Origin: a virus
Lineage: Duplodnaviria > Heunggongvirae > Uroviricota > Caudoviricetes
Virus record (IMG/VR): IMGVR_UViG_2531839146_000012
DNA: 9,403 nucleotides
Direction: 5' to 3' (one strand)
Part shown: positions 1-9,403 of the stretch, one piece after another
How the letters are laid out: each line of letters begins with the position of its first letter
Numbering within the stretch: the first letter of the stretch is position 1
The notes under the pieces: generated by a model
Told to the model about the DNA's origin: nothing
The model's database searches: none
Seen by the model: only the letters and a program-made list of their open reading frames with translations
Program-made: the position numbers and the translations under genes

Positions 1-395
<395 letters not shown>

Positions 396-1014: not shown

Positions 1015-1566
1015 ATGCGCAGGTCTGCATTTGTGAGGATGATGATTTTTACAACGTTGTTTGTAGGGGGAACTTCTACCGCAGTTGCTAAAAACTGCAA
1101 AAAAGGAATACCTTGTGGTAACTCGTGTATAGCTGTTGGTAAGACGTGCCGGATTGGCTCTTATGCCCCTTCATCTTATAAAAATCATTCATACTCTTAT
1201 CCTTCATCCTCTATTCGAAGCTCGCAATCAAATAATTCACGAAAAACTGAAGGAGTGAAAACGACTCCTGCTGCCAAAAATTATCTTTGCCAATACTCTA
1301 TTGCATCAATCGAAAACGGACGTTTAGGGGCATTACGTGTTCAGGGATACGCACAAGTAACTTTATATGCAGATAGCTTCAAGGCTAACAGATTAAATGG
1401 AACATATTTGATATCGCCAAAACTGAATGCTAACGGCAAGTTTATGATGGCAGATGATAAAAGCAAGGTTTATGCTTATGATTCTTGGCTATTAAATTTT
1501 GCAATAAGCGATCGTATCACAAGAACGACAGAACAATGGGATCGATGTAAGCTCAATCAAAAATAA
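1015..1566 (+). CDS. Secreted cysteine-rich hypothetical protein (183 aa) with Sec-type signal peptide
   Basis: GGAGG-containing RBS (1005-1010) before ATG 1015. N-terminus MRRSAFVRMMIFTTLFVGGTSTAVA looks like a signal peptide (basic n-region, hydrophobic core, AVA cleavage motif), followed by a 4-Cys cluster CKKGIPCGNSCIAVGKTC, a Ser/Tyr-rich linker and a C-terminal domain with two more Cys. Confidence 0.75.
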   Translation: MRRSAFVRMMIFTTLFVGGTSTAVAKNCKKGIPCGNSCIAVGKTCRIGSYAPSSYKNHSYSYPSSSIRSSQSNNSRKTEGVKTTPAAKNYLCQYSIASIENGRLGALRVQGYAQVTLYADSFKANRLNGTYLISPKLNANGKFMMADDKSKVYAYDSWLLNFAISDRITRTTEQWDRCKLNQK

Positions 1567-1855: not shown

Positions 1856-2275
1856 CCTTTATCCCTTCCCTTATGGCTAGATTGCGAGAAGTGCTTAACG
1901 CGATTTTCAGCGCCCCCCGATCTGGAAAATCCAGAATCCCCAAATATCAGCAAGGAATTTTCTTGCGTAATCAACATCGTTTTTACCTATTAAATCATCA
2001 CACAGAAAGCCTTTCTGTAATGTCTCTCACTAAACTTTCACTAAACACGAGAATGATCGGTTTTATGTCGGATCAGATGCTAGAAACAGCACCACGTCTC
2101 ACAAGGGCTGTAAGCGATGAAACCAGTGTTTATGCGGGTGCAGGTCAAAATATGGGCCAAAATCCATTTAACATAATAATCGTAATATGCACTAAGGAAC
2201 ACATAGAACGCCTTGAATTGATGTATCAGGGGAAAAGTGATGGATTTTTTACGTAGGAGCACGAGAGGGCTTCTG

Positions 2276-2337: not shown

Positions 2338-2780
2338 GATTACACAGGGGGATAGATTAAATGGTGTTCTGTTTATACAGGTTTATTTGTTAGATCAACA
2401 ATTTGGCATTTCTAAACAGATGTTTGAACGTTGCCAAATGTATTGACAACACAAGAAAAGGGCTTGCTATGCCACGCATTACACGGAATAAGGCTGTAAA
2501 AACAAAATAAATTTTAAAATTTGCACAAACGAGAAAACTCGTTCAGAAACAAGCAGAACAATTTTTAGCCAACAATTTCTGATGGTGCTCTGTAAACCGC
2601 ATTACACAAGGCTTTGCGAAAGTGATGTAAAAGTGAAGAAAGCTAACATTGCACTTTGAAGCCATTTTTCATTGGATTTTTTAGTAGGGAATTACACAGG
2701 GAATAGAGAGCATTATTCTATGATTTACACAGGGAATATAGGGGATTATGGCACACACATAGAAAGGCATTACACAGAGT
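2338..2780 (+). repeat. Dispersed direct repeats of G(C/G)ATTACAC(A/G)GG (iteron-like), six copies
   Basis: ATTACAC cores at 2339, 2478, 2601, 2691, 2769 and a TTTACAC variant at 2724, each preceded by G(G/C/A) and followed by (A/G)(G/A)G. Confidence 0.6.
2401..2439. promoter_or_regulatory. Nested imperfect palindrome ATTTGGCA...AAACA-GA-TGTTT...TGCCAAAT, operator-like
   Basis: Outer arms 2401-2408 and 2432-2439 are exact reverse complements; an inner palindrome AAACAGATGTTT lies between them. A TTGACA at 2443-2448 follows. Confidence 0.35.
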
Positions 2781-2808
2781 GAGTGCTATGTGATGATTGG
2801 TAGTAACG

Positions 2809-2843
2809 GTAGGTCACTGTGAGCTACCCCCACAGAATTCTGT
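2809..2843. repeat. Isolated copy of the 22-bp repeat core (GGTAGGTCACTGTGAGCTA) followed by CCCCC and a perfect 12-bp palindrome ACAGAATTCTGT
   Basis: 2809-2827 matches the tandem unit at 3028-3135; the palindrome at 2832-2843 is flanked by TACCCC on both sides. Confidence 0.5.
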
Positions 2844-2883
2844 TACCCCTATCAAGTCTGATACCCGATAAGTATAAATAACA

Positions 2884-2981
2884 CCTAGGAAATGATTTCC
2901 GATCTATTTAGGAAGTAACCTAGGAAGTGGTTTCCTACCTACTTAGGAAATGAGTTCCTACCTACCTAGGAAATGAGTTCC
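2884..2981. repeat. Four CCTAGG-GGAAAT-G-A(T/G)TTCC palindromic sites, the last three at 23-bp pitch
   Basis: GGAAATGATTTCC at 2888-2900 is a perfect odd-length palindrome; GGAAGTGGTTTCC at 2923-2935; GGAAATGAGTTCC at 2946-2958 and 2969-2981. Confidence 0.6.
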
Positions 2982-3006
2982 ACCAATACTATAATTAAAT
3001 AATATA

Positions 3007-3022
3007 AATAATATTCTTTATA
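3007..3022. repeat. Exact 16-bp direct repeat AATAATATTCTTTATA, left copy; right copy at 3184-3199
   Basis: Identical 16-mers at 3007-3022 and 3184-3199 bracket the 22-bp tandem array and its AT-rich flank; both continue with similar (C)TATAT sequence. Confidence 0.55.
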
Positions 3023-3027
3023 CTATA

Positions 3028-3135
3028 TAGCTCACTGTGAACTAGGGGGGGTAGTTCACTATGAGCTAGGGGGTAGGTCATAGTGAGCTAGGGGGTAGGT
3101 CATAGTGAGCTAGGGGGTAGGTCACTGTGAACTAC
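3028..3135. repeat. Five tandem 22-bp repeats (unit about TAGGTCATAGTGAGCTAGGGGG), each with a palindromic TCAC-N-GTGA core
   Basis: Units start near 3028, 3050, 3074, 3096 and 3118 with 22-bp period; the first unit is in inverted orientation (AGCTCACTGTGAACTAG). Followed by an AT-rich stretch with (TA)6 at about 3203-3214. Confidence 0.65.
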
Positions 3136-3324
3136 AATAAGACTATTAATAAAACTATATTAGATTATTAATTAGATCATAATAATAATATTCTTTATAT
3201 CTATATATATATATGATCTTTTGCCTTCCGGCGTTAGCTTCACTCTCTGGCAAGCAGCCTTACTCCGCTACCTTTCGGGCTTCGTGGCTGGCCCGTTCCG
3301 CTCACACCGAAAGCAAAGCGTTAC

Positions 3325-4220: not shown

Positions 4221-4249
4221 TTGACAAATGTTTCTTTATATGTAATAAT
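4221..4249 (+). promoter_or_regulatory. Putative sigma70 promoter of the early operon
   Basis: -35 TTGACA (4221-4226), 17-bp spacer, extended -10 TGtAATAAT (4241-4249). It lies about 110 nt upstream of the first gene. Confidence 0.5.
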
Positions 4250-4359: not shown

Positions 4360-4548
4360 ATGAAATGGTTTACCCCGGAGCACGTCATCTCGGCATTTAA
4401 AAAAGGTGAGCTTACACGCCATCAAGTAGTAATGAATCGTAATATGGCAAGGAGTCGAGGTTATCCAGAGCGAGCAGCTTGCTTCAATGAAGCACTCAAG
4501 ATTATTGATGAATTAAGAAAAAATGAAAAAGAATCTGAAACAGAGTAA
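4360..4548 (+). CDS. Small hypothetical protein (62 aa), first gene of the early operon
   Basis: AAGGAG RBS at 4348-4353, 6-nt spacer, ATG 4360. No family recognised. Confidence 0.6.
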   Translation: MKWFTPEHVISAFKKGELTRHQVVMNRNMARSRGYPERAACFNEALKIIDELRKNEKESETE

Positions 4549-4567
4549 AGAATAGAAGGAGAAAACT

Positions 4568-4735
4568 ATGAGCGAAACCAAGAAACCAATTCCGCGCACT
4601 TACCTACACGTTGACCCTGAAATCTTCAAGGTTTTATTTGCTGAAGCCAAGAAAAGGCAAATTATGGTCAGTGATTTGATGTTAGAAATCATTACTGAAG
4701 CAGCAGAGAACATCAAACAAAAAAAGGGTAAGTGA
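4568..4735 (+). CDS. Ribbon-helix-helix (CopG/Arc/MetJ-like) DNA-binding protein, 55 aa; below the ORF-track cutoff
   Basis: AAGGAG at 4555-4560, ATG 4568, stop TGA 4733-4735. Translation MSETKKPIPRTYLHVDPEIFKVLFAEAKKRQIMVSDLMLEIITEAAENIKQKKGK fits a beta-strand / helix / helix layout typical of RHH proteins. Confidence 0.55.
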   Translation: MSETKKPIPRTYLHVDPEIFKVLFAEAKKRQIMVSDLMLEIITEAAENIKQKKGK

Positions 4736-4786: not shown

Positions 4787-5479
4787 ATGATTAATCAACT
4801 AACTTTTACAAAACACTATGACACGTTTGATAATGTATCAAAGATTTATTCTGATAAATTCCCTCAAGGAAAAGATTTAGATCTATTACATATTGTGCTT
4901 TATTTTCGATTCCTTAGTTATCAGGAAAACAACCTTAATTGTTATGAAAGTCACGAAACATTAGCTAAGATTTTTAAGTCTTCAGCGTCAACAATTAAAC
5001 GTAAGATAAACGATCTTAAAGAGATGGGATTATTAGAAACATCCCCACATCCTGATCCGTATATTTCATCTTTGATTTACAATGCTCTCCCTCTCACAGA
5101 TGCACATATTACTCCCCCAGGAGAATCATCACTCTCTGATCTTTCTGAGGCAGAAGAAGCACAGGAACAACCTAAAGGCCATAAACAGCCTTCTTTTGAT
5201 GTTCTTGATGATGATTGGGATGCGCCTTTACCGTGGGAGACGGAAGAAACACCTGTTTCATCAAGTGAAAAGGTAGCTAATGATAATGAGGAGGATGTGT
5301 TAGAGAATTTTGCCTCTCTTATCATCCGGGAGAAACACAGAAGAACAGGAGGATCATCATTTATAGACTTTGCAAATTCACTGGCTTATAGACACGGGCT
5401 AAAACGACCAAATGGTATTGAGGCATATTTTGCTAAGAAACATCCCAAAGTATATGAAGACTTTGATATTCCATTTTAA
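4787..5479 (+). CDS. Winged-HTH protein (HTH_36 / replisome-organizer-like N-domain), acidic linker, C-terminus ending EDFDIPF
   Basis: AAGGAG at 4774-4779, ATG 4787. The N-terminal ...CYESHETLAKIFKSSASTIKRKINDLKEMGLLE matches the usual winged-HTH pattern of phage/plasmid replication organizers. An acidic low-complexity linker (DDDWDAPLPWETEE...) follows; the last residues are YEDFDIPF, stop 5477-5479. Confidence 0.8.
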   Translation: MINQLTFTKHYDTFDNVSKIYSDKFPQGKDLDLLHIVLYFRFLSYQENNLNCYESHETLAKIFKSSASTIKRKINDLKEMGLLETSPHPDPYISSLIYNALPLTDAHITPPGESSLSDLSEAEEAQEQPKGHKQPSFDVLDDDWDAPLPWETEETPVSSSEKVANDNEEDVLENFASLIIREKHRRTGGSSFIDFANSLAYRHGLKRPNGIEAYFAKKHPKVYEDFDIPF

Positions 5480-6678: not shown

Positions 6679-6707
6679 TTGACATTTCATATATTGTATG
6701 TTAATAT
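6679..6707 (+). promoter_or_regulatory. Strong sigma70-like promoter ahead of the late genes
   Basis: -35 TTGACA (6679-6684), 17-bp spacer, -10 TAATAT (6702-6707). Confidence 0.6.
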
Positions 6708-6714
6708 AATTATA

Positions 6715-6932
6715 TAGGGTGATTATTTTTCCTTTATTGGTTCGATATTAAAAATTCTTCTTGTCGTTAAAGGGGAGTAAAATCTCCGCTCCCCGCTTCT
6801 CCTCCTTAAGTAATACTGTGTCATTATTACCTCTTTCCTTTGTTATGCATACATCTTGGAGTGTGCATAACATAGGGTAATTACATAGGTACAAGTTAAT
6901 AAAAGGCGGCTTTAAATGCTGCCTTTTATTTT
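6715..6932 (+). ncRNA. Candidate roughly 220-nt leader / small RNA from the promoter to the intrinsic terminator; no ORF
   Basis: Promoter at 6679-6707 and terminator at 6901-6932 with no ORF over 11 codons between them. Alternative hairpins GGGGAG...CTCC...CTCCCC (6772-6794) and a 9-bp stem TGTTATGCA / TGCATAACA (6841-6849 / 6865-6873). Confidence 0.35.
6901..6932 (+). terminator. Rho-independent terminator
   Basis: Stem AAGGCGGC (6903-6910) / GCTGCCTT (6918-6925, one G-U pair), loop TTTAAAT, then TTATTTT. Confidence 0.6.
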
Positions 6933-6994
6933 GCCCGTTATGCAACTTAAAAGTTGTATTTCTTACTTTAAACAAGGTAACAAGGTTTATATAA

Positions 6995-7207
6995 ATGTTG
7001 TTCTTAAATGATAAAGAGCAAATCATCAAGTATCGCGATGAAATGCTAAAGATCAATCCACAAATTACCGAAATGGTAGCTAAATACGCTGGGTGTTCTG
7101 TCGAGGAAGTAGAAAGATGTGTTGAAAAATATTTTTCTCCTTCTTCTCCGTCTACACCTTCCCTTAATGAATTAATCAAATTAAAAGCTAAGGAGATTAC
7201 TAAATGA
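6995..7207 (+). CDS. Small hypothetical protein (70 aa), first late gene
   Basis: ATG 6995 with a weak AAGG RBS; its stop overlaps the next start (ATGA at 7204-7207), suggesting translational coupling. Confidence 0.5.
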   Translation: MLFLNDKEQIIKYRDEMLKINPQITEMVAKYAGCSVEEVERCVEKYFSPSSPSTPSLNELIKLKAKEITK

Positions 7208-7566
7208 TTATTGATTTAGACACTCTGTTTCCAGTTCGAAAGACTTTCACAGATATTGTAAGTTATTGTACTGATCCGTTTGCCTCTGTAGAAAGCAAGG
7301 TTTTTGCTTCTCTTCCTGCTGATGTTGAGTGCGGAGACTTGATCACCAGCACTGGCGCTAAATATGAATCAGGAGATGATATCTATGTTGTTATGAGTGA
7401 ATTTGTAACGGCTGGAGCAAACAAGCCTGTAGATGTGCTACGTAGCAATGCTGGGCTTGTATGCATCAAAGCTGATGCCCTGAATGCTGTAAGTGAAGCA
7501 GCAAAAGCAGCATTAATTAAAAAAGGCTTTCAGCTTGAAGGGTTCCATTCTGTTTTCACTTCTTAA
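7204..7566 (+). CDS. Hypothetical protein (120 aa) immediately upstream of the capsid homolog; possible head accessory (decoration or scaffold-like), unproven
   Basis: AAGGAG at 7191-7196, ATG 7204. The accessory-protein role is suggested by position only. Confidence 0.7.
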   Translation: MIIDLDTLFPVRKTFTDIVSYCTDPFASVESKVFASLPADVECGDLITSTGAKYESGDDIYVVMSEFVTAGANKPVDVLRSNAGLVCIKADALNAVSEAAKAALIKKGFQLEGFHSVFTS

Positions 7567-7584: not shown

Positions 7585-8613
7585 ATGATTCTAGGTAATG
7601 ATTACGTTGATTTAGCTCCTCTGTTCTCTGCGCATAGCACTAGAAATTATCTGCTTTCTACTCTTGATTTTACGGATTCTGTAGGGGTTACATCTCATAA
7701 AGTGGCTGTTAGCCAACTGGTGGAAACTAACGAATCTCTGTTCAACAAAGAAACCTCTCGTTTCTCTTCTGAACATAACGTGACTAAGCGTGAACAAGGT
7801 AAAGAATATCTGATTGAAATCCCGTACTTTTTAAGGGAAGACCTGATCAAACCGCAGGACGTGCAAGGCAAACGTAAACCTGGCACTGATTTTCAGGAAA
7901 CACTCACTGATATTTATGCTGACTATGTTGCTAAACACAATGTTGCATTCCAGCGTACAAAAGAGAGCGTGTTGGCGGCTTCTTTGTTCTCTGGCAAAAC
8001 TTACACGCCTAAAACTGATGATGTTCTTATCGAATGGGGCAAGCTGTTTAACGTATCAGCTATGAAAGCCACTGTGAACGCTTCCAGCACTGACACCACG
8101 AAGATTTTTAAAGAATTTGATCAGATTGCTACTGACATTATCGAGAAAGCACAAAGCCAGGCGGCTGCTGTAGAGCGTATTGTTGTTTTCTGTAAGCCGG
8201 AAGCCTTCTCTGCAATTCGATTCTCTGCTGGTATGGCAAACGCATTCCAGTATGTAAGCCCACTGGAAGAGGGGAACGTTGTGTATCAGCGTCGTGACCT
8301 GCTGCCAGGGGTGACAGCGTTCACTATTCCAGGAACTAACATTGATGTTATTAAACTGGTAGATCCGCTACACCTGGCACATATGACCGCAGACGCTGTA
8401 GCGATTCCGAAGTTTGCTAAAGGCTCTAACGTATATCAGAACATCTACGGGGCTGCTTCCAGCACTTTTGAACTGATTAATGCCGATCCTACTGAGGTCT
8501 ATAGCTACAGCTATGAATCTTCTCGTGGTGATGCTGTGAACGTTGTTACAGAGAATAGCCAGATGGTTGTTAACCACGGTGTAGGCTTCTCCGTTCAAAT
8601 CACTGTTAAATAA
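7585..8613 (+). CDS. Putative phage major capsid protein, T7 gp10-like (342 aa)
   Basis: AAAAGGA RBS, ATG 7585. By eye, the segment AVERIVVFCKPEAFSAIRFSAGMANAFQYVSPLEEGNV aligns with T7 gp10 ...ADRVFYCDPDSYSAILAALMPNAANYAALIDPEKGSI (shared R, C-x-P, SAI, M-x-NA-x-x-Y, P-x-E-x-G) at a similar position in a protein of near-identical length (342 vs 345 aa; T7 sequence from memory). Followed by a strong terminator. Confidence 0.6.
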   Translation: MILGNDYVDLAPLFSAHSTRNYLLSTLDFTDSVGVTSHKVAVSQLVETNESLFNKETSRFSSEHNVTKREQGKEYLIEIPYFLREDLIKPQDVQGKRKPGTDFQETLTDIYADYVAKHNVAFQRTKESVLAASLFSGKTYTPKTDDVLIEWGKLFNVSAMKATVNASSTDTTKIFKEFDQIATDIIEKAQSQAAAVERIVVFCKPEAFSAIRFSAGMANAFQYVSPLEEGNVVYQRRDLLPGVTAFTIPGTNIDVIKLVDPLHLAHMTADAVAIPKFAKGSNVYQNIYGAASSTFELINADPTEVYSYSYESSRGDAVNVVTENSQMVVNHGVGFSVQITVK

Positions 8614-8630
8614 TATTTAACGTGTAATAG

Positions 8631-8664
8631 AGGCGTGGCGTGTATTCACGCTTCGCCTTTTTTT
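8631..8664 (+). terminator. Rho-independent terminator after the capsid-like gene
   Basis: AGGCG-TG-GCGTG / loop TATT / CACGC-TT-CGCCT, followed by a 7-T run (8658-8664). Confidence 0.7.
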
Positions 8665-8698: not shown

Positions 8699-8902
8699 AT
8701 GGAAGTGATTCTGAAATCAAAAAATGGTGTACACGTACATTTAGATGCTAATGATTCTAGAGGATTGTTAAATCTGAAATATCTATGTTCTCTCCTAGAT
8801 GTTCCATATGAAGGAGTAAAAGCCCGTATGTTCAGACTAAACGAGAGTATTGATCAAGCTCTACACCATTTCTTAAGCAAAGAAGGTGATAAAAATGATT
8901 AA
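8699..8902 (+). CDS. Small hypothetical protein (67 aa)
   Basis: AGAGG RBS, ATG 8699, stop 8900-8902. Confidence 0.5.
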   Translation: MEVILKSKNGVHVHLDANDSRGLLNLKYLCSLLDVPYEGVKARMFRLNESIDQALHHFLSKEGDKND

Positions 8903-8916
8903 TAAGGGGATTTTAA

Positions 8917-9183
8917 ATGTTAGAAATTAACACTTCTAAAATTAAGAACACAGTTACATTTAGTGTAGATAAAGACAGCTTGAAAAAAGCGAAAGACTCT
9001 ATTACAGGCTTAAAGGAATTCGCAGAAAACATCAAGCCAGCTAAATTAAGGTTTGATAATGTCACTAAAGGCTATAAGAAAGCACAAAGTGAAGTAGATA
9101 AGATTACTAAAAAGCAAGCCCAGGCTGATAAAGCTAATGCTAAAGCACAATTAGCCGCTCAACGTGTAGTTGCAAGAGGGTAA
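8917..9183 (+). pseudogene. Lys/Ala/Gln-rich (coiled-coil-like) protein gene truncated by the IS1 insertion
   Basis: AAGGGGA RBS, ATG 8917. The frame runs into the IS1 terminal inverted repeat starting at 9179, and the stop TAA (9181-9183) is supplied by the IS1 end GGTAATGAC. Translation ends ...AQLAAQRVVARG. Confidence 0.5.
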
Positions 9184-9403
9184 TGACTCCAACTTATTGA
9201 TAGTGTTTTATGTTCAGATAATGCCCGATGACTTTGTCATGCAGCTCCACCGATTTTGAGAACGACAGCGACTTCCGTCCCAGCCGTGCCAGGTGCTGCC
9301 TCAGATTCAGGTTATGCCGCTCAATTCGCTGCGTATATCGCTTGCTGATTACGTGCAGCTTTCCCTTCAGGCGGGATTCATACAGCGGCCAGCCATCCGT
9401 CAT
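9179..9403 (-). mobile_element. IS1 right end (partial; continues beyond the window)
   Basis: 9179 onward reads GGTAATGACTCCAACTTATTGATAGTGTTTTATGTTCAG..., the reverse complement of the canonical IS1 right terminus including the GGTAATGACTCCAACTTATTGAT inverted repeat. Confidence 0.9.
9194..9403 (-). CDS. insB: IS1 transposase InsB, C-terminal fragment
   Basis: Track [72 protein letters not shown] is the recognisable C-terminus of IS1 InsB; stop at 9196-9194. Confidence 0.9.

Follow-up and report, generated by a model that had tools for sequence, protein, structure and literature searches.

A chromosomal island of Enterobacterales encodes an HK97-fold major capsid protein and may be a satellite of phi92-like phages

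The 342-amino-acid protein encoded in a 9,403-nucleotide stretch of viral DNA (IMG/VR record IMGVR_UViG_2531839146_000012; the whole stretch is called the window here) is a phage-type major capsid protein with the HK97 fold, of the lambda gpE/phi92 gp124 type. Its gene belongs to a chromosomal island that is, on balance, probably an integrative phage satellite of ~13 kb, with virulent phi92-like myoviruses (Stephanstirmvirinae) as candidate helpers, a reading built on sequence comparison. The island has the general attributes of a satellite, namely a fitting size with an integrase and att sites, replication functions of its own together with a partial virion gene set, and a specific link to a helper. 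The features of the window are listed in Table 1.

Table 1. Features of the 9,403-nucleotide window, with position, strand and basis.
Feature	Position	Strand	Basis or remark
IS100 right end (istB 3′ end and terminus)	1–214	+	Foreign to element; MS 85-1 annotation (identical chromosome)
Small conserved hypothetical gene, 50 aa	243–395	+	CDS in MS 85-1 and strain 1500
Small conserved hypothetical gene, 52 aa	462–620	-	CDS in MS 85-1 and strain 1500
183-aa protein, signal-peptide-like N-terminus	1015–1566	+	PHROG 2578/14768 (unknown function), E 1e-17
46-nt copy of phage DTR inner boundary	1876–1921	-	43/46 identical; phage genome positions 363–318
Second DTR-derived motif	2391–2446	-	Phage positions 184–129; collinear with 46-mer
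Putative replication origin: iteron arrays between AT-rich repeats	2680–3200		Repeat analysis
Pair of small genes (62 and 55 aa), presumed regulators	4360–4735	+	ORFs, annotation
230-aa winged-HTH protein resembling replication initiator	4787–5479	+	PHROG 270, E 2e-9; HTH_36 (Pfam), E 3e-5
Conserved small gene, 92 aa	5491–5769	+	Annotated CDS
Conserved small gene, 136 aa	5899–6309	+	Annotated CDS
Conserved small gene, 112 aa	6311–6649	+	Annotated CDS
Sigma70-like promoter TTGACA-17-TAATAT with TG (6679–6707), then 287-nt leader	6679–6994	+	Promoter scan
70-aa protein, first structural-operon gene	6995–7207	+	ORF, annotation
120-aa probable capsid decoration (cement) protein	7204–7566	+	Slot, weak fold match, C-terminus
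Major capsid protein, HK97 fold, Phage_cap_E	7585–8613	+	ATG start, 342 aa
Intrinsic-terminator-like hairpin (8630–8654) and T-run	8630–8664	+	3′ of capsid gene
67-aa protein between capsid and tape-measure genes	8699–8902	+	ORF, annotation
Tape-measure-like gene, N-terminal 87 codons	8917–9178	+	Severed by IS1
IS1 partial, insB end (annotated IS1B)	9179–9403	-	Within tape-measure-like gene; foreign to element

The capsid open reading frame, whose extent and ATG start are as the initial annotation gave them, matches the Pfam family Phage_cap_E (PF03864) with an E-value of 7e-15 and a score of 55.3 bits, against a cut-off of 22.9 bits; residues 18–341 align with model positions 13–329 of 329. 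It also matches PHROG 29 (major head protein), PGAP already labels the product “major capsid protein” (WP_000600417.1), and among 53 capsid homologues PF03864 is present in all for which a domain is recorded. The best solved relative, found by comparing the family profile with the PDB, is Phi92_gp124 (1.2e-19, residues 2–341), and alignment with the capsid protein of a phi92-like phage is colinear at 21% identity. The AF2 model of the protein (pLDDT 75.9, pTM 0.76) yielded 210 PDB matches at E ≤ 1e-3 in Foldseek. The top matches are capsids of PhiTE, Bas63, Sf14, ICP1 (the ICP1-linked structure 8g1r) and lambda, with E-values from 1e-17 to 1e-7, and the leading phage capsids reach TM-scores of 0.60–0.66.

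The initial annotation had proposed a homologue of the T7 capsid protein gp10. Fold and phage database searches confirm the HK97 capsid fold and a capsid family; that family is the lambda gpE/phi92 gp124 one and not T7 gp10. T7-like phages account for none of the 198 tblastn matches of the capsid protein, and no T7 capsid chain was recovered in phmmer or family-profile searches of the PDB, even at E ≤ 10. T7 gp10 (3j7w_A) appears at rank 45 of the Foldseek matches, with a TM-score of 0.45 and 10% identity. Given these tblastn, phmmer, family-profile and fold results, a relationship to T7 gp10 was rejected, save for a generic HK97-fold resemblance.

Homologues of the island capsid are full-length (342–348 aa) down to 38% identity, and come from Escherichia, Citrobacter, Klebsiella, Enterobacter, Cronobacter, Serratia and Sodalis, all Enterobacterales. 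Identity to any phage capsid is only about 21–25%, and a tblastn search of 50,697 phage records returned no capsid above about 26%. The island capsids are a clade of their own, confined to chromosomal islands of Enterobacterales. Purifying selection acts on the gene, with a dN/dS of about 0.1 (0.10–0.14 at dS 0.3–1.6). The terminator that had been noted behind the gene is seen as a hairpin and T-run, and the phi92-like phage likewise has a terminator directly 3′ of its capsid gene. The island capsid may form an icosahedral, DNA-containing shell. A domesticated HK97-fold shell, serving the host as an encapsulin-like nanocompartment, is hardly credible: encapsulins do occur among the distant Foldseek matches (ranks 37–48), but at TM-scores of only 0.36–0.40, the nearest sequence relatives are phage capsids, and the gene sits in an integrase-bearing mobile element next to decoration-like and phage tail genes, with no cargo enzyme in the neighbourhood.

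The genes around the capsid gene form a structural operon. Its leader is highly structured (MFE −81 kcal/mol, z −6.2 against shuffles) and holds a terminator-like hairpin. The operon promoter is of the consensus sigma70 type, so nothing points to expression that depends on a helper; a late-promoter motif common to the island and the phi92-like phage was sought, and the promoters in both are only generic, sigma70-like ones. The first gene, for a 70-aa protein with no family match, is conserved in E. coli type-A islands and in the 64%-capsid group. The second encodes a probable capsid decoration protein, as judged from a model of modest confidence (pLDDT 64.7). In Foldseek the decoration proteins of Sf14 and Bas63 rank highest and that of PhiTE comes seventh, all with weak scores (E 0.02–0.1, TM about 0.5). 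In the phi92-like phage KMB37, a 130-aa decoration gene lies directly upstream of the capsid gene, the slot that the 120-aa gene occupies in the island. The 120-aa protein and the phage decoration gene also have a C-terminal VFTS and 17 identical nucleotides in common, and FTS is invariant in the family of the 120-aa protein. Overall sequence similarity between the two proteins is not significant, so the assignment is drawn from fold, position and C-terminal motif only. Downstream of the capsid gene, the slot before the tape-measure gene always holds a gene for 62–87 aa; the 67-aa protein found there in the window has no similarity to the 75-aa protein encoded before the phage tape-measure gene.

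The initial annotation described an island bounded by insertion sequences. IS100 and IS1 have instead simply inserted into a longer element, whose real ends are att repeats outside the window. Island sequence resumes at position 215, the attL-proximal 633 bp lying upstream of IS100, outside the window. At the other end, IS1 (junction sequence GGTAATGACTCC, target duplication TTGCAAGAG) interrupts the tape-measure gene, whose remaining ~500 codons lie beyond it, also outside the window; the window copy is therefore probably crippled for tail function. Intact copies measure 12.4–13.9 kb between exact att repeats of 20–24 nt, one of which lies in a tRNA 3′ end. Att-to-att sizes of 13,130, 13,487, 12,405 and 13,939 bp were found at tRNA-Thr and tRNA-Gly genes in E. 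coli and Klebsiella. E. coli 1500 is one strain whose island is intact (NZ_CP040269, 1913475–1926605). The island sits in a prophage-rich tRNA hotspot, and its neighbour in MS 85-1 is a different element, which encodes a TOPRIM/DUF927 primase and has another integrase.

Intact islands carry a tyrosine integrase (425 aa) at one end, a Rep-like protein with iterons, and a virion gene subset comprising the capsid, the probable decoration protein, a tape-measure homologue and usually a tail-tube-initiator homologue. The capsid gene, called the largest of the island in the initial annotation, is the largest within the window; in intact copies the tape-measure-like (610 aa) and integrase genes are larger. 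The initial annotation rightly found a capsid gene surprising in the company of small regulators and repeats; beyond that first view lay the decoration-like, tape-measure-like and tube-initiator-like genes and the phage terminal-repeat motifs. Pfam and PHROG scans of annotated and unannotated ORFs recognised no portal, protease, scaffold or terminase, no sheath, tube or baseplate gene was found by the same scans and phage comparison, and no island protein beyond the homologues listed matches the phi92-like phage. The island is present in 397 of 5,426 complete E. coli genomes (~7%), always in the chromosome and in up to three copies. All 21 IMG/VR loci lie within contigs of 19–76 kb, with no stand-alone genome of ~13 kb among them.

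Left of the structural operon lie putative replication genes and presumed regulators. The two small genes next to IS100 (50 and 52 aa) had no family matches in Pfam and PHROG scans. The segment at 1015–1566 is a variable cargo slot: the 183-aa gene occurs only in some loci, and a serine recombinase takes its place in L014 and L015. Within the putative origin, the 22-nt iteron GGGGGTAGGTCAyWGTGAGCTA is present in five tandem copies (3026–3135) with one more at 2808, ACCTAGGAA...TTCC occurs three times at 2883–2972, and AT-rich 31-mers lie at 2992 and 3169; strain 1500 has a different iteron sequence in the same place. The presumed regulators of 62 and 55 aa had no family matches, and are preceded by a near-consensus sigma70-like promoter at about 4221–4249 (GGTATTGACAAAT...TGTAATAAT). 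The 230-aa Rep-like protein also matches several other Rep/DnaD/O-like PHROGs, and its gene is the most variable core gene among island variants (29–96% identity). The 92-, 136- and 112-aa genes that follow are kept in most variants and had no significant family matches in Pfam, PHROG or PADLOC. The window contains no Rfam families.

The link to phi92-like phages comes from tail genes and from terminal-repeat sequence. The tail genes of the island are syntenic with those of the virulent phi92-like myoviruses and 35–56% identical to them. PHROG 16051 (tape measure) is matched by the fragment in the window (E 1e-16) and by the intact 610-aa protein (E 4e-52). Compared with the phage tape measure protein (TMP), the N-terminal 66 residues are 55% identical, with near-identity over 23 residues, and residues 173–610 are 28% identical; at the DNA level, 87 nt are 85% identical. 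The tube initiator is 56% identical to that of the phage, and its gene adjoins the TMP gene as it does there.

The phi92-like phages with related tail genes are virulent, with genomes of about 147 kb and direct terminal repeats (DTRs) of 343 bp. DTR-type termini have been reported independently for these phages (PMC12210895, PMC12695924); we found no published description of their packaging signals. The 46-nt motif of the island matches phi92, UAB_1 and others, and is found only in 62 phi92-type phage records. The DTR is annotated at 1–343 in both phi92 and UAB_1, and the boundary 343/344 maps between window positions 1895 and 1896. The same region is the 100%-conserved peak between the terminal regions of E. 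coli and Klebsiella phages. Phage reading frames across the 46-mer are inconsistent or broken, making it non-coding. Its interpretation as a protein start (window ORF 1873–2256) was rejected, as the Klebsiella phage CDS uses another frame and UAB_1 has stops; this ORF has no protein similarity beyond the 46-mer. The secondary structure of the 46-mer is no different from that of shuffles.

The second motif is 75% identical to the phage over 56 nt (E 9e-7, local search), has conserved inverted-repeat arms (TTTGGCA...TGCCAAA) and recurs in many island variants. Both motifs lie in the ORF-poor region of the island and recur across capsid subtypes, and the Klebsiella island has a version closer to a Klebsiella phage. 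DTR-like motifs were undetected in loci L014, L015, L029, L030, L032, L033, L036 and L003 (the Serratia locus), and the ORF-poor region of L014 gave no phage match at all. Only the inner boundary is copied, with no mimic of the outer DTR boundary in the island. We propose that the 46-mer may mimic a packaging or processing signal, and it points to a place at the DTR boundary in phi92-like phages where the terminase may recognise or cleave the DNA; the DTR motifs could have a role in replication or sensing instead of packaging.

These observations bear on whether the island is simply a decaying prophage remnant with a leftover capsid gene, which we consider improbable. Its place in a prophage-rich hotspot, the few structural genes left, and a window copy into which two IS elements have inserted, one of them disrupting the tape-measure gene, would all suit such a remnant. 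Decay is at odds with a compact gene order and size that are found again, together with intact att sites, in Klebsiella and in E. coli subtypes whose capsids are 64–100% identical, and with the low capsid dN/dS. Moreover, related tail genes and the DTR motif are found only in large virulent phages, and none of the 50,697 phage records has a closely related capsid.

For a satellite of phi92-like phages, the following course can be pictured. Infection by the helper would lead to excision and replication of the island. The island capsid and decoration proteins would assemble on the helper portal, with helper scaffold and protease (for which a 371-aa helper protein is a candidate), into shells small enough to fit a 13-kb genome, perhaps about T=4 by analogy with P4, SaPI and PLE. 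With only 21% identity to the helper capsid, the fit with the portal, scaffold and protease is assumed. Helper terminase would recognise the mimicked DTR-boundary site and package island DNA, and the island tape-measure and tube-initiator proteins would replace those of the helper in the tail core, giving tails for the island's own particles, sabotage of helper tails, or both. The net outcome would be island transfer and a lower helper yield. We put at roughly even chances the fuller proposal of an unrecognised, widespread family of satellites of virulent, jumbo-range phi92-like coliphages that supplies its own shell and tail core, steals portal, terminase, sheath, tube, baseplate and fibres, and is packaged by mimicry of the DTR inner boundary.

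An unlikely alternative is that the island is not transferred and acts in defence or interference, its structural homologues being dominant-negative decoys against phi92-like assembly and its DTR motifs titrating or misdirecting the terminase. The structural homologues are indeed aimed at exactly one phage group, the near-identical 23 residues at the TMP N-terminus are what would be expected of a competitor for the same binding partner, and a sigma70-type promoter would permit expression independent of a helper; satellite-encoded interference with tail assembly is documented (PMC11364771). On the other hand, no PADLOC defence model was matched beyond weak wHTH matches, and pure defence needs neither an integrase, intact att sites and an own replicon nor a tight ~13-kb size in two genera. 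Strong purifying selection on the capsid and decoration pair also speaks for a real shell. The same island could both interfere with phages and be transferred.

If the island is a satellite of phi92-like phages, several points follow. Known satellites of E. coli (P4, PICIs and cf-PICIs) exploit temperate phages, and the large virulent myoviruses of this host would gain their first proposed satellite system. Small capsids are known to arise through internal scaffolds (SaPI), external scaffolds (P4 Sid, PLE TcaP) or full head modules (cf-PICI); swapping the coat protein while keeping the helper portal and packaging motor would be a fourth route. No other satellite known to us replaces the tail tape measure and tube initiator, as this one would. 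Stephanstirmvirinae have a broad host range, are often isolated for therapy and are included in commercial cocktails, so that an island present in about 7% of E. coli genomes and parasitising or blocking them would be of practical relevance.

Among phages, the capsids of phi92 (gp124), Pakpunavirus P7-1, PhiTE, Sf14 and Bas63 resemble that of the island in belonging to Phage_cap_E, in the HK97 fold, in size (333–368 aa) and in colinear alignment, the capsid gene lying just after a small decoration gene and just before a terminator. Unlike in those phages, the island capsid gene is not accompanied by portal, protease/scaffold and terminase genes.

Membership of a satellite family already described (cf-PICI, PICI, P4-like or PLE) that had gone unrecognised is highly improbable, in spite of a superficial likeness between capsid-forming PICIs and a ~13-kb integrase-bearing element with a capsid gene. 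Searches of the literature found no publication that links satellites to Stephanstirmvirinae, describes the island or cites the RefSeq accessions of four island proteins. The cf-PICIs encode a PF05065 capsid together with portal, protease, adaptors, HNH and TerS/TerL, and need their temperate helpers for tails only (PMC13230959). Like them, the island is a satellite-sized integrative element encoding its own capsid, from which small particles with borrowed helper parts would follow. It differs in having a PF03864 capsid and decoration protein only, with none of the cf-PICI partner genes in Pfam and PHROG scans of annotated and unannotated ORFs, so that it would need the helper portal and terminase; it also adds tail-core proteins, and the phages that seem to serve as its helpers are virulent.

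PLE of Vibrio cholerae is marked by a large serine recombinase, RepA and the TcaP scaffold. Also chromosomal and of comparable size, it preys on the large virulent myovirus ICP1, whose capsid belongs to the same structural clade; small capsids and helper inhibition would be expected of both elements. PLE is said by Boyd et al. to remodel, by means of an external scaffold, the coat protein that the helper makes, whereas the island brings its own coat protein. No PLE-type protein was found in the island by Pfam and PHROG scans, and its integrase (tyrosine-type) and hosts (Enterobacterales) differ. P4, whose helper is P2, likewise integrates at tRNA genes and has its own replicon, and its dependence on a cis copy of the helper packaging site (P4 cos is identical to P2 cos) is paralleled by the DTR-boundary mimic of the island. 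P4 has no capsid or tail genes, using Sid and Psu to resize and decorate P2-derived capsids; of its hallmark genes (Psu, Sid, Delta and the alpha primase-helicase), none was found in the island by Pfam and PHROG scans. The Streptomyces satellites MiniFlayer and Mulch are described (PMC10690885) as encoding their own encapsidation proteins, exploiting a virulent helper and lacking key replication genes. They would resemble the island in the first two respects; their hosts are different, and the island, for its part, encodes a Rep-like protein, with iterons, as well as an integrase.

The 342-aa product of the ORF is almost certainly a capsid protein of the gpE/phi92 type. It matched Pfam PF03864 (Phage_cap_E, the lambda gpE family) across its whole length with 55 bits, against a cut-off of 22.9 bits, and also matched PHROG 29, 'major head protein'. 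The chromosome of Escherichia coli MS 85-1 contains the window at 100% identity, and PGAP already annotates the ORF there as 'major capsid protein'. Together with the ORF call and the hairpin pattern downstream, these matches confirmed the initial annotation as to the ORF and its size, the terminator and the assignment as a capsid protein. The likeness to T7 gp10 claimed there did not hold. A tblastn search of 50,697 phage records returned only distant capsids of Pseudomonas Pakpunavirus/KIL-type myoviruses (23-26% identity) and none from a T7-like phage. Among PDB sequences, phmmer matched the protein to the Pakpunavirus P7-1 capsid (9zbi, identified via PMC12697256) and to Phi92_gp124. The latter was also the best match (1.2e-19, residues 2-341) of a profile built from 21 family members, which matched neither T7 gp10 nor lambda gpE in the PDB even at E<=10. 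The AlphaFold2 model (pLDDT 75.9) has a predicted HK97 fold, in line with the capsid call, and resembles the capsids of PhiTE, Bas63, Sf14, ICP1, YSD1, Chi and lambda (TM 0.54-0.66); T7 gp10 ranked 45th, with a TM of 0.45 and 10% identity. Since sequence, profile and fold comparisons all favour the gpE/phi92 type, a T7-type assignment was rejected.

Full-length homologues of 342-348 aa, with identities down to 38%, are present in Escherichia, Citrobacter, Klebsiella, Enterobacter, Cronobacter, Dryocola, Serratia and Sodalis. Between E. coli variants the gene has a dN/dS of 0.10-0.14 at dS 0.3-1.6, and on these sequence comparisons it is functional and conserved. Together with its upstream neighbour it is found in 397 of 5,426 complete E. 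coli genomes, always on the chromosome and in at most three copies per genome.

The ORF very probably lies on a mobile integrative element. In strain 1500 the island is uninterrupted, sits between tRNA-Thr (thrW) and the pao genes with a tyrosine integrase at its end, and measures 13,130 bp between copies of a 28-nt repeat (20-nt exact core), the left of which is the tRNA 3' end. Further variants, each flanked by exact att repeats of 22-24 nt, measure 13,487 bp (E. coli) and 13,939 bp (Klebsiella) at tRNA-Gly(CCC) and 12,405 bp at thrW. Contrary to the earlier description of the island as IS-bounded, IS100 and IS1 are simple insertions into it. Directly upstream of IS100 the island continues with its 633 attL-proximal bp, and IS1 lies within the tape-measure gene with a 9-bp duplication; thus the limits of the island are not set by the IS elements, and the tape-measure gene of this copy is broken.

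Gene order was constant across the variants compared. Small genes of the left arm come first, then a variable cargo slot, an ORF-poor region of 1.5-2.8 kb, small regulators, a Rep-like wHTH protein (PHROG 270, 2e-9) and three small genes without assigned function. The structural operon then encodes proteins of 70 and 120 aa, the capsid, a protein of 62-87 aa, a tape-measure homologue of 610-629 aa (PHROG 16051, 4e-52) and, usually, a 227-aa Dit-like (tail-tube-initiator-like) protein (PF21821, 1.5e-29). The integrase gene follows on the opposite strand. No portal, protease, scaffold, terminase, sheath, tube or baseplate family was found in any annotated or unannotated island ORF. In other variants the cargo slot holds a 183-aa serine recombinase or, in Klebsiella, a Dam methylase. 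That the element is the remnant of a prophage is unlikely, as its architecture and size are conserved, att sites are present, the capsid gene is under purifying selection and no temperate relative was found.

Coordinates of features in the window, in island loci (L001, MS 85-1; L002, strain 1500; L037, a divergent variant), in the phi92-like phage KMB37 and on a plasmid
Feature	Position	Description
Cargo-slot gene	window 1015-1566 (+)	183-aa protein, signal-peptide-like N-terminus; PHROG 2578/14768 (function unassigned)
46-nt motif	window 1876-1921	In ORF-poor region; 43/46 identical to phage sequence (local comparison with KMB37)
Counterpart of inner DTR boundary	window 1895/1896	
Second DTR motif	window 2391-2446	Collinear with phage 184-129; 75%, E 9e-7
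Iteron arrays and AT-rich repeats	window 2680-3200	Adjoin the DTR-like motifs
Iterons of strain 1500	L002 17628-17719	Sequence wholly different from MS 85-1
Promoter	window 6679-6707	Near-consensus sigma70-type, upstream of structural operon
Leader	window 6708-6994 (+)	287 nt, promoter to first structural gene; MFE -81 kcal/mol, z -6.2 against shuffles
Leader hairpin	window ~6897-6930	Terminator-like
Capsid ORF	window 7585-8613 (+)	342 aa, ATG start
Terminator	window 8630-8654	Hairpin and T-run fitting the intrinsic-terminator pattern
Tape-measure 5' end	L002 23482-23550; KMB37 67537-67624	87 nt, 85% identical DNA
Motif pair of divergent variant	L037 2691-2821	Spacing ~8 nt
Tandem element	L001 28956-39403	Downstream of island integrase
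Plasmid insert	NZ_CP126938.1 39323-44475	~18% of window, 93% identity

Other mobile DNA was observed around and beyond the island. In MS 85-1 a separate satellite-like element, of P4/PICI type, lies in tandem with the island at the shared tRNA-Thr hotspot; it encodes a second integrase, an HTH regulator, an antA/antB antirepressor, an ash-family protein and a TOPRIM/DUF927 primase. On its upstream side, the MS 85-1 island is preceded by lambdoid tail genes and the toxin-antitoxin pair RnlA/RnlB. Part of the left half of the island also occurs on an E. coli plasmid of 166 kb, in pieces that match between window 216 and 5155 and adjoin an IS3 transposase and a recombinase.

Together with the AT-rich repeats that flank them, the iterons resemble a replication origin. 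MS 85-1 and strain 1500 have entirely different iteron sequences within flanks that are 95-98% identical, in step with variation in the Rep-like protein, the most variable core gene, which suggests swapping of replicon modules between island variants. The operon leader folds into several long hairpins, far more stably than shuffled controls, and had no Rfam match. It may serve the capsid operon as a switch that works by antitermination or processing; its terminator-like hairpin could make read-through into the structural genes conditional.

The tail genes link the island to one phage group. Phage relatives of the tape-measure-like and Dit-like proteins were found only in Stephanstirmvirinae (phi92, Justusliebigvirus, Phapecoctavirus and Klebsiella relatives), virulent myoviruses of ~145-150 kb. 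The Dit-like protein is ~56% identical to the phage 'tail tube initiator', and the two genes are neighbours in KMB37 as in the island. The tape measure shares 55% identity with its phage counterpart over the first 66 residues and 28% over residues 173-610. Residues 1-23 (MLEINTSKIKNTVTF[S/T]VDKDSLK) are nearly identical, and DNA identity here is far above that of the rest of the gene (28%), suggesting an interaction surface under strong constraint or a recent gene conversion with a helper. The KMB37 capsid aligns colinearly with the island capsid at 21% identity, and its gene likewise has a small gene before it, encoding a 130-aa decoration protein, and a terminator after it. Sequence comparison with the phage decoration protein gave no significant match for the 120-aa island protein. 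Its model, of moderate quality (pLDDT 64.7), gave Sf14 and Bas63 decoration proteins as the top five matches among ~350,000 PDB chains, with PhiTE at rank 7, all weak (E 0.02-0.1, TM ~0.5). The same three virions supply capsids that best match the island capsid, and the gene of the 120-aa protein and the KMB37 decoration gene share a C-terminal VFTS, of which FTS is invariant within the 120-aa family, and 17 identical nucleotides. On this fold ranking, the virions in common and the shared terminus, it is a probable decoration protein. When the full set of 16 island proteins was compared by tblastn with the complete KMB37 genome, no further homologues were found.

The ORF-poor region carries DNA from the direct terminal repeat (DTR) of the same phages. 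Among all phage records, the 46-nt motif is restricted to 62 phi92-type genomes and occupies positions 363-318 in those deposited from the physical end. The left DTR is annotated at 1-343 in phi92 and UAB_1, so the motif spans its inner boundary; for BME3, PhageTerm gave a DTR of 342 bp, and such DTRs are stated to occur in the subfamily generally (PMC12210895, PMC12695924). Over the terminal 450 bp, phi92 and a Klebsiella phage are 64% identical, with a 100% peak at positions 330-350. A coding role for the motif was rejected, as reading frames differ or are interrupted among phages. The second motif has conserved inverted-repeat arms. Spacing between the motifs is ~470 nt in the window and ~108 nt in the phage; since the motifs are kept while spacing varies, the intervening sequence is dispensable. 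The boundary motif of the Klebsiella island is nearer the Klebsiella phage version (73% over 75 nt, E 1e-10). In a 26-locus survey, the motifs recurred, in versions that vary, among capsid subtypes sharing 64-100% identity with that of the window and were undetectable in several others; the ORF-poor region of one divergent subtype had no phage match. Four unannotated GenBank records of ~146.4 kb labelled 'Campylobacter phage' (MG065639, MG065645, MG065656 and MG065689) share the Justusliebigvirus tape-measure gene and the DTR motif, and may be mislabelled or contaminant coliphage genomes.

The element thus combines hallmarks of mobility, its own replicon and a selected capsid gene with a minimal structural gene set whose homologues belong to a single group of virulent phages, and with cis motifs derived from the DTR of those phages. 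The most economical reading, which we favour with some reserve, is a satellite dependent on Stephanstirmvirinae. Helper infection would trigger excision and replication of the island, whose coat and decoration proteins would form small shells on the helper portal and scaffold. The helper terminase would package island DNA through the mimicked DTR-boundary site, and the island tape measure and tube initiator would replace the helper tail core, for the island's own particles, for sabotage of the helper, or both. Speculatively, the very divergent capsid (21%) fits a coat protein selected to assemble apart from that of the helper, and the closer tail-core proteins (35-56%) fit a need to match helper parts. 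Counting against a satellite are the absence of DTR motifs from some subtypes, the mimicry of only one DTR boundary and the sigma70-type promoter on the structural operon; no stand-alone ~13-kb contigs of the island were found in IMG/VR. The main rival is a pure defence or interference island, a role compatible with transfer; the element matched no PADLOC model.

The literature searched, whose coverage was incomplete so that an earlier description is possible, held no account of this element or of any satellite of Stephanstirmvirinae. Membership of the cf-PICI, P4-like or PLE families fails, as the island differs from each in lacking its defining genes. Its 13 kb lies in the size range of the satellite genomes that T=4 capsids enclose (P4, SaPI and PLE), and it probably represents a new satellite family, aimed at phi92-like virulent coliphages.
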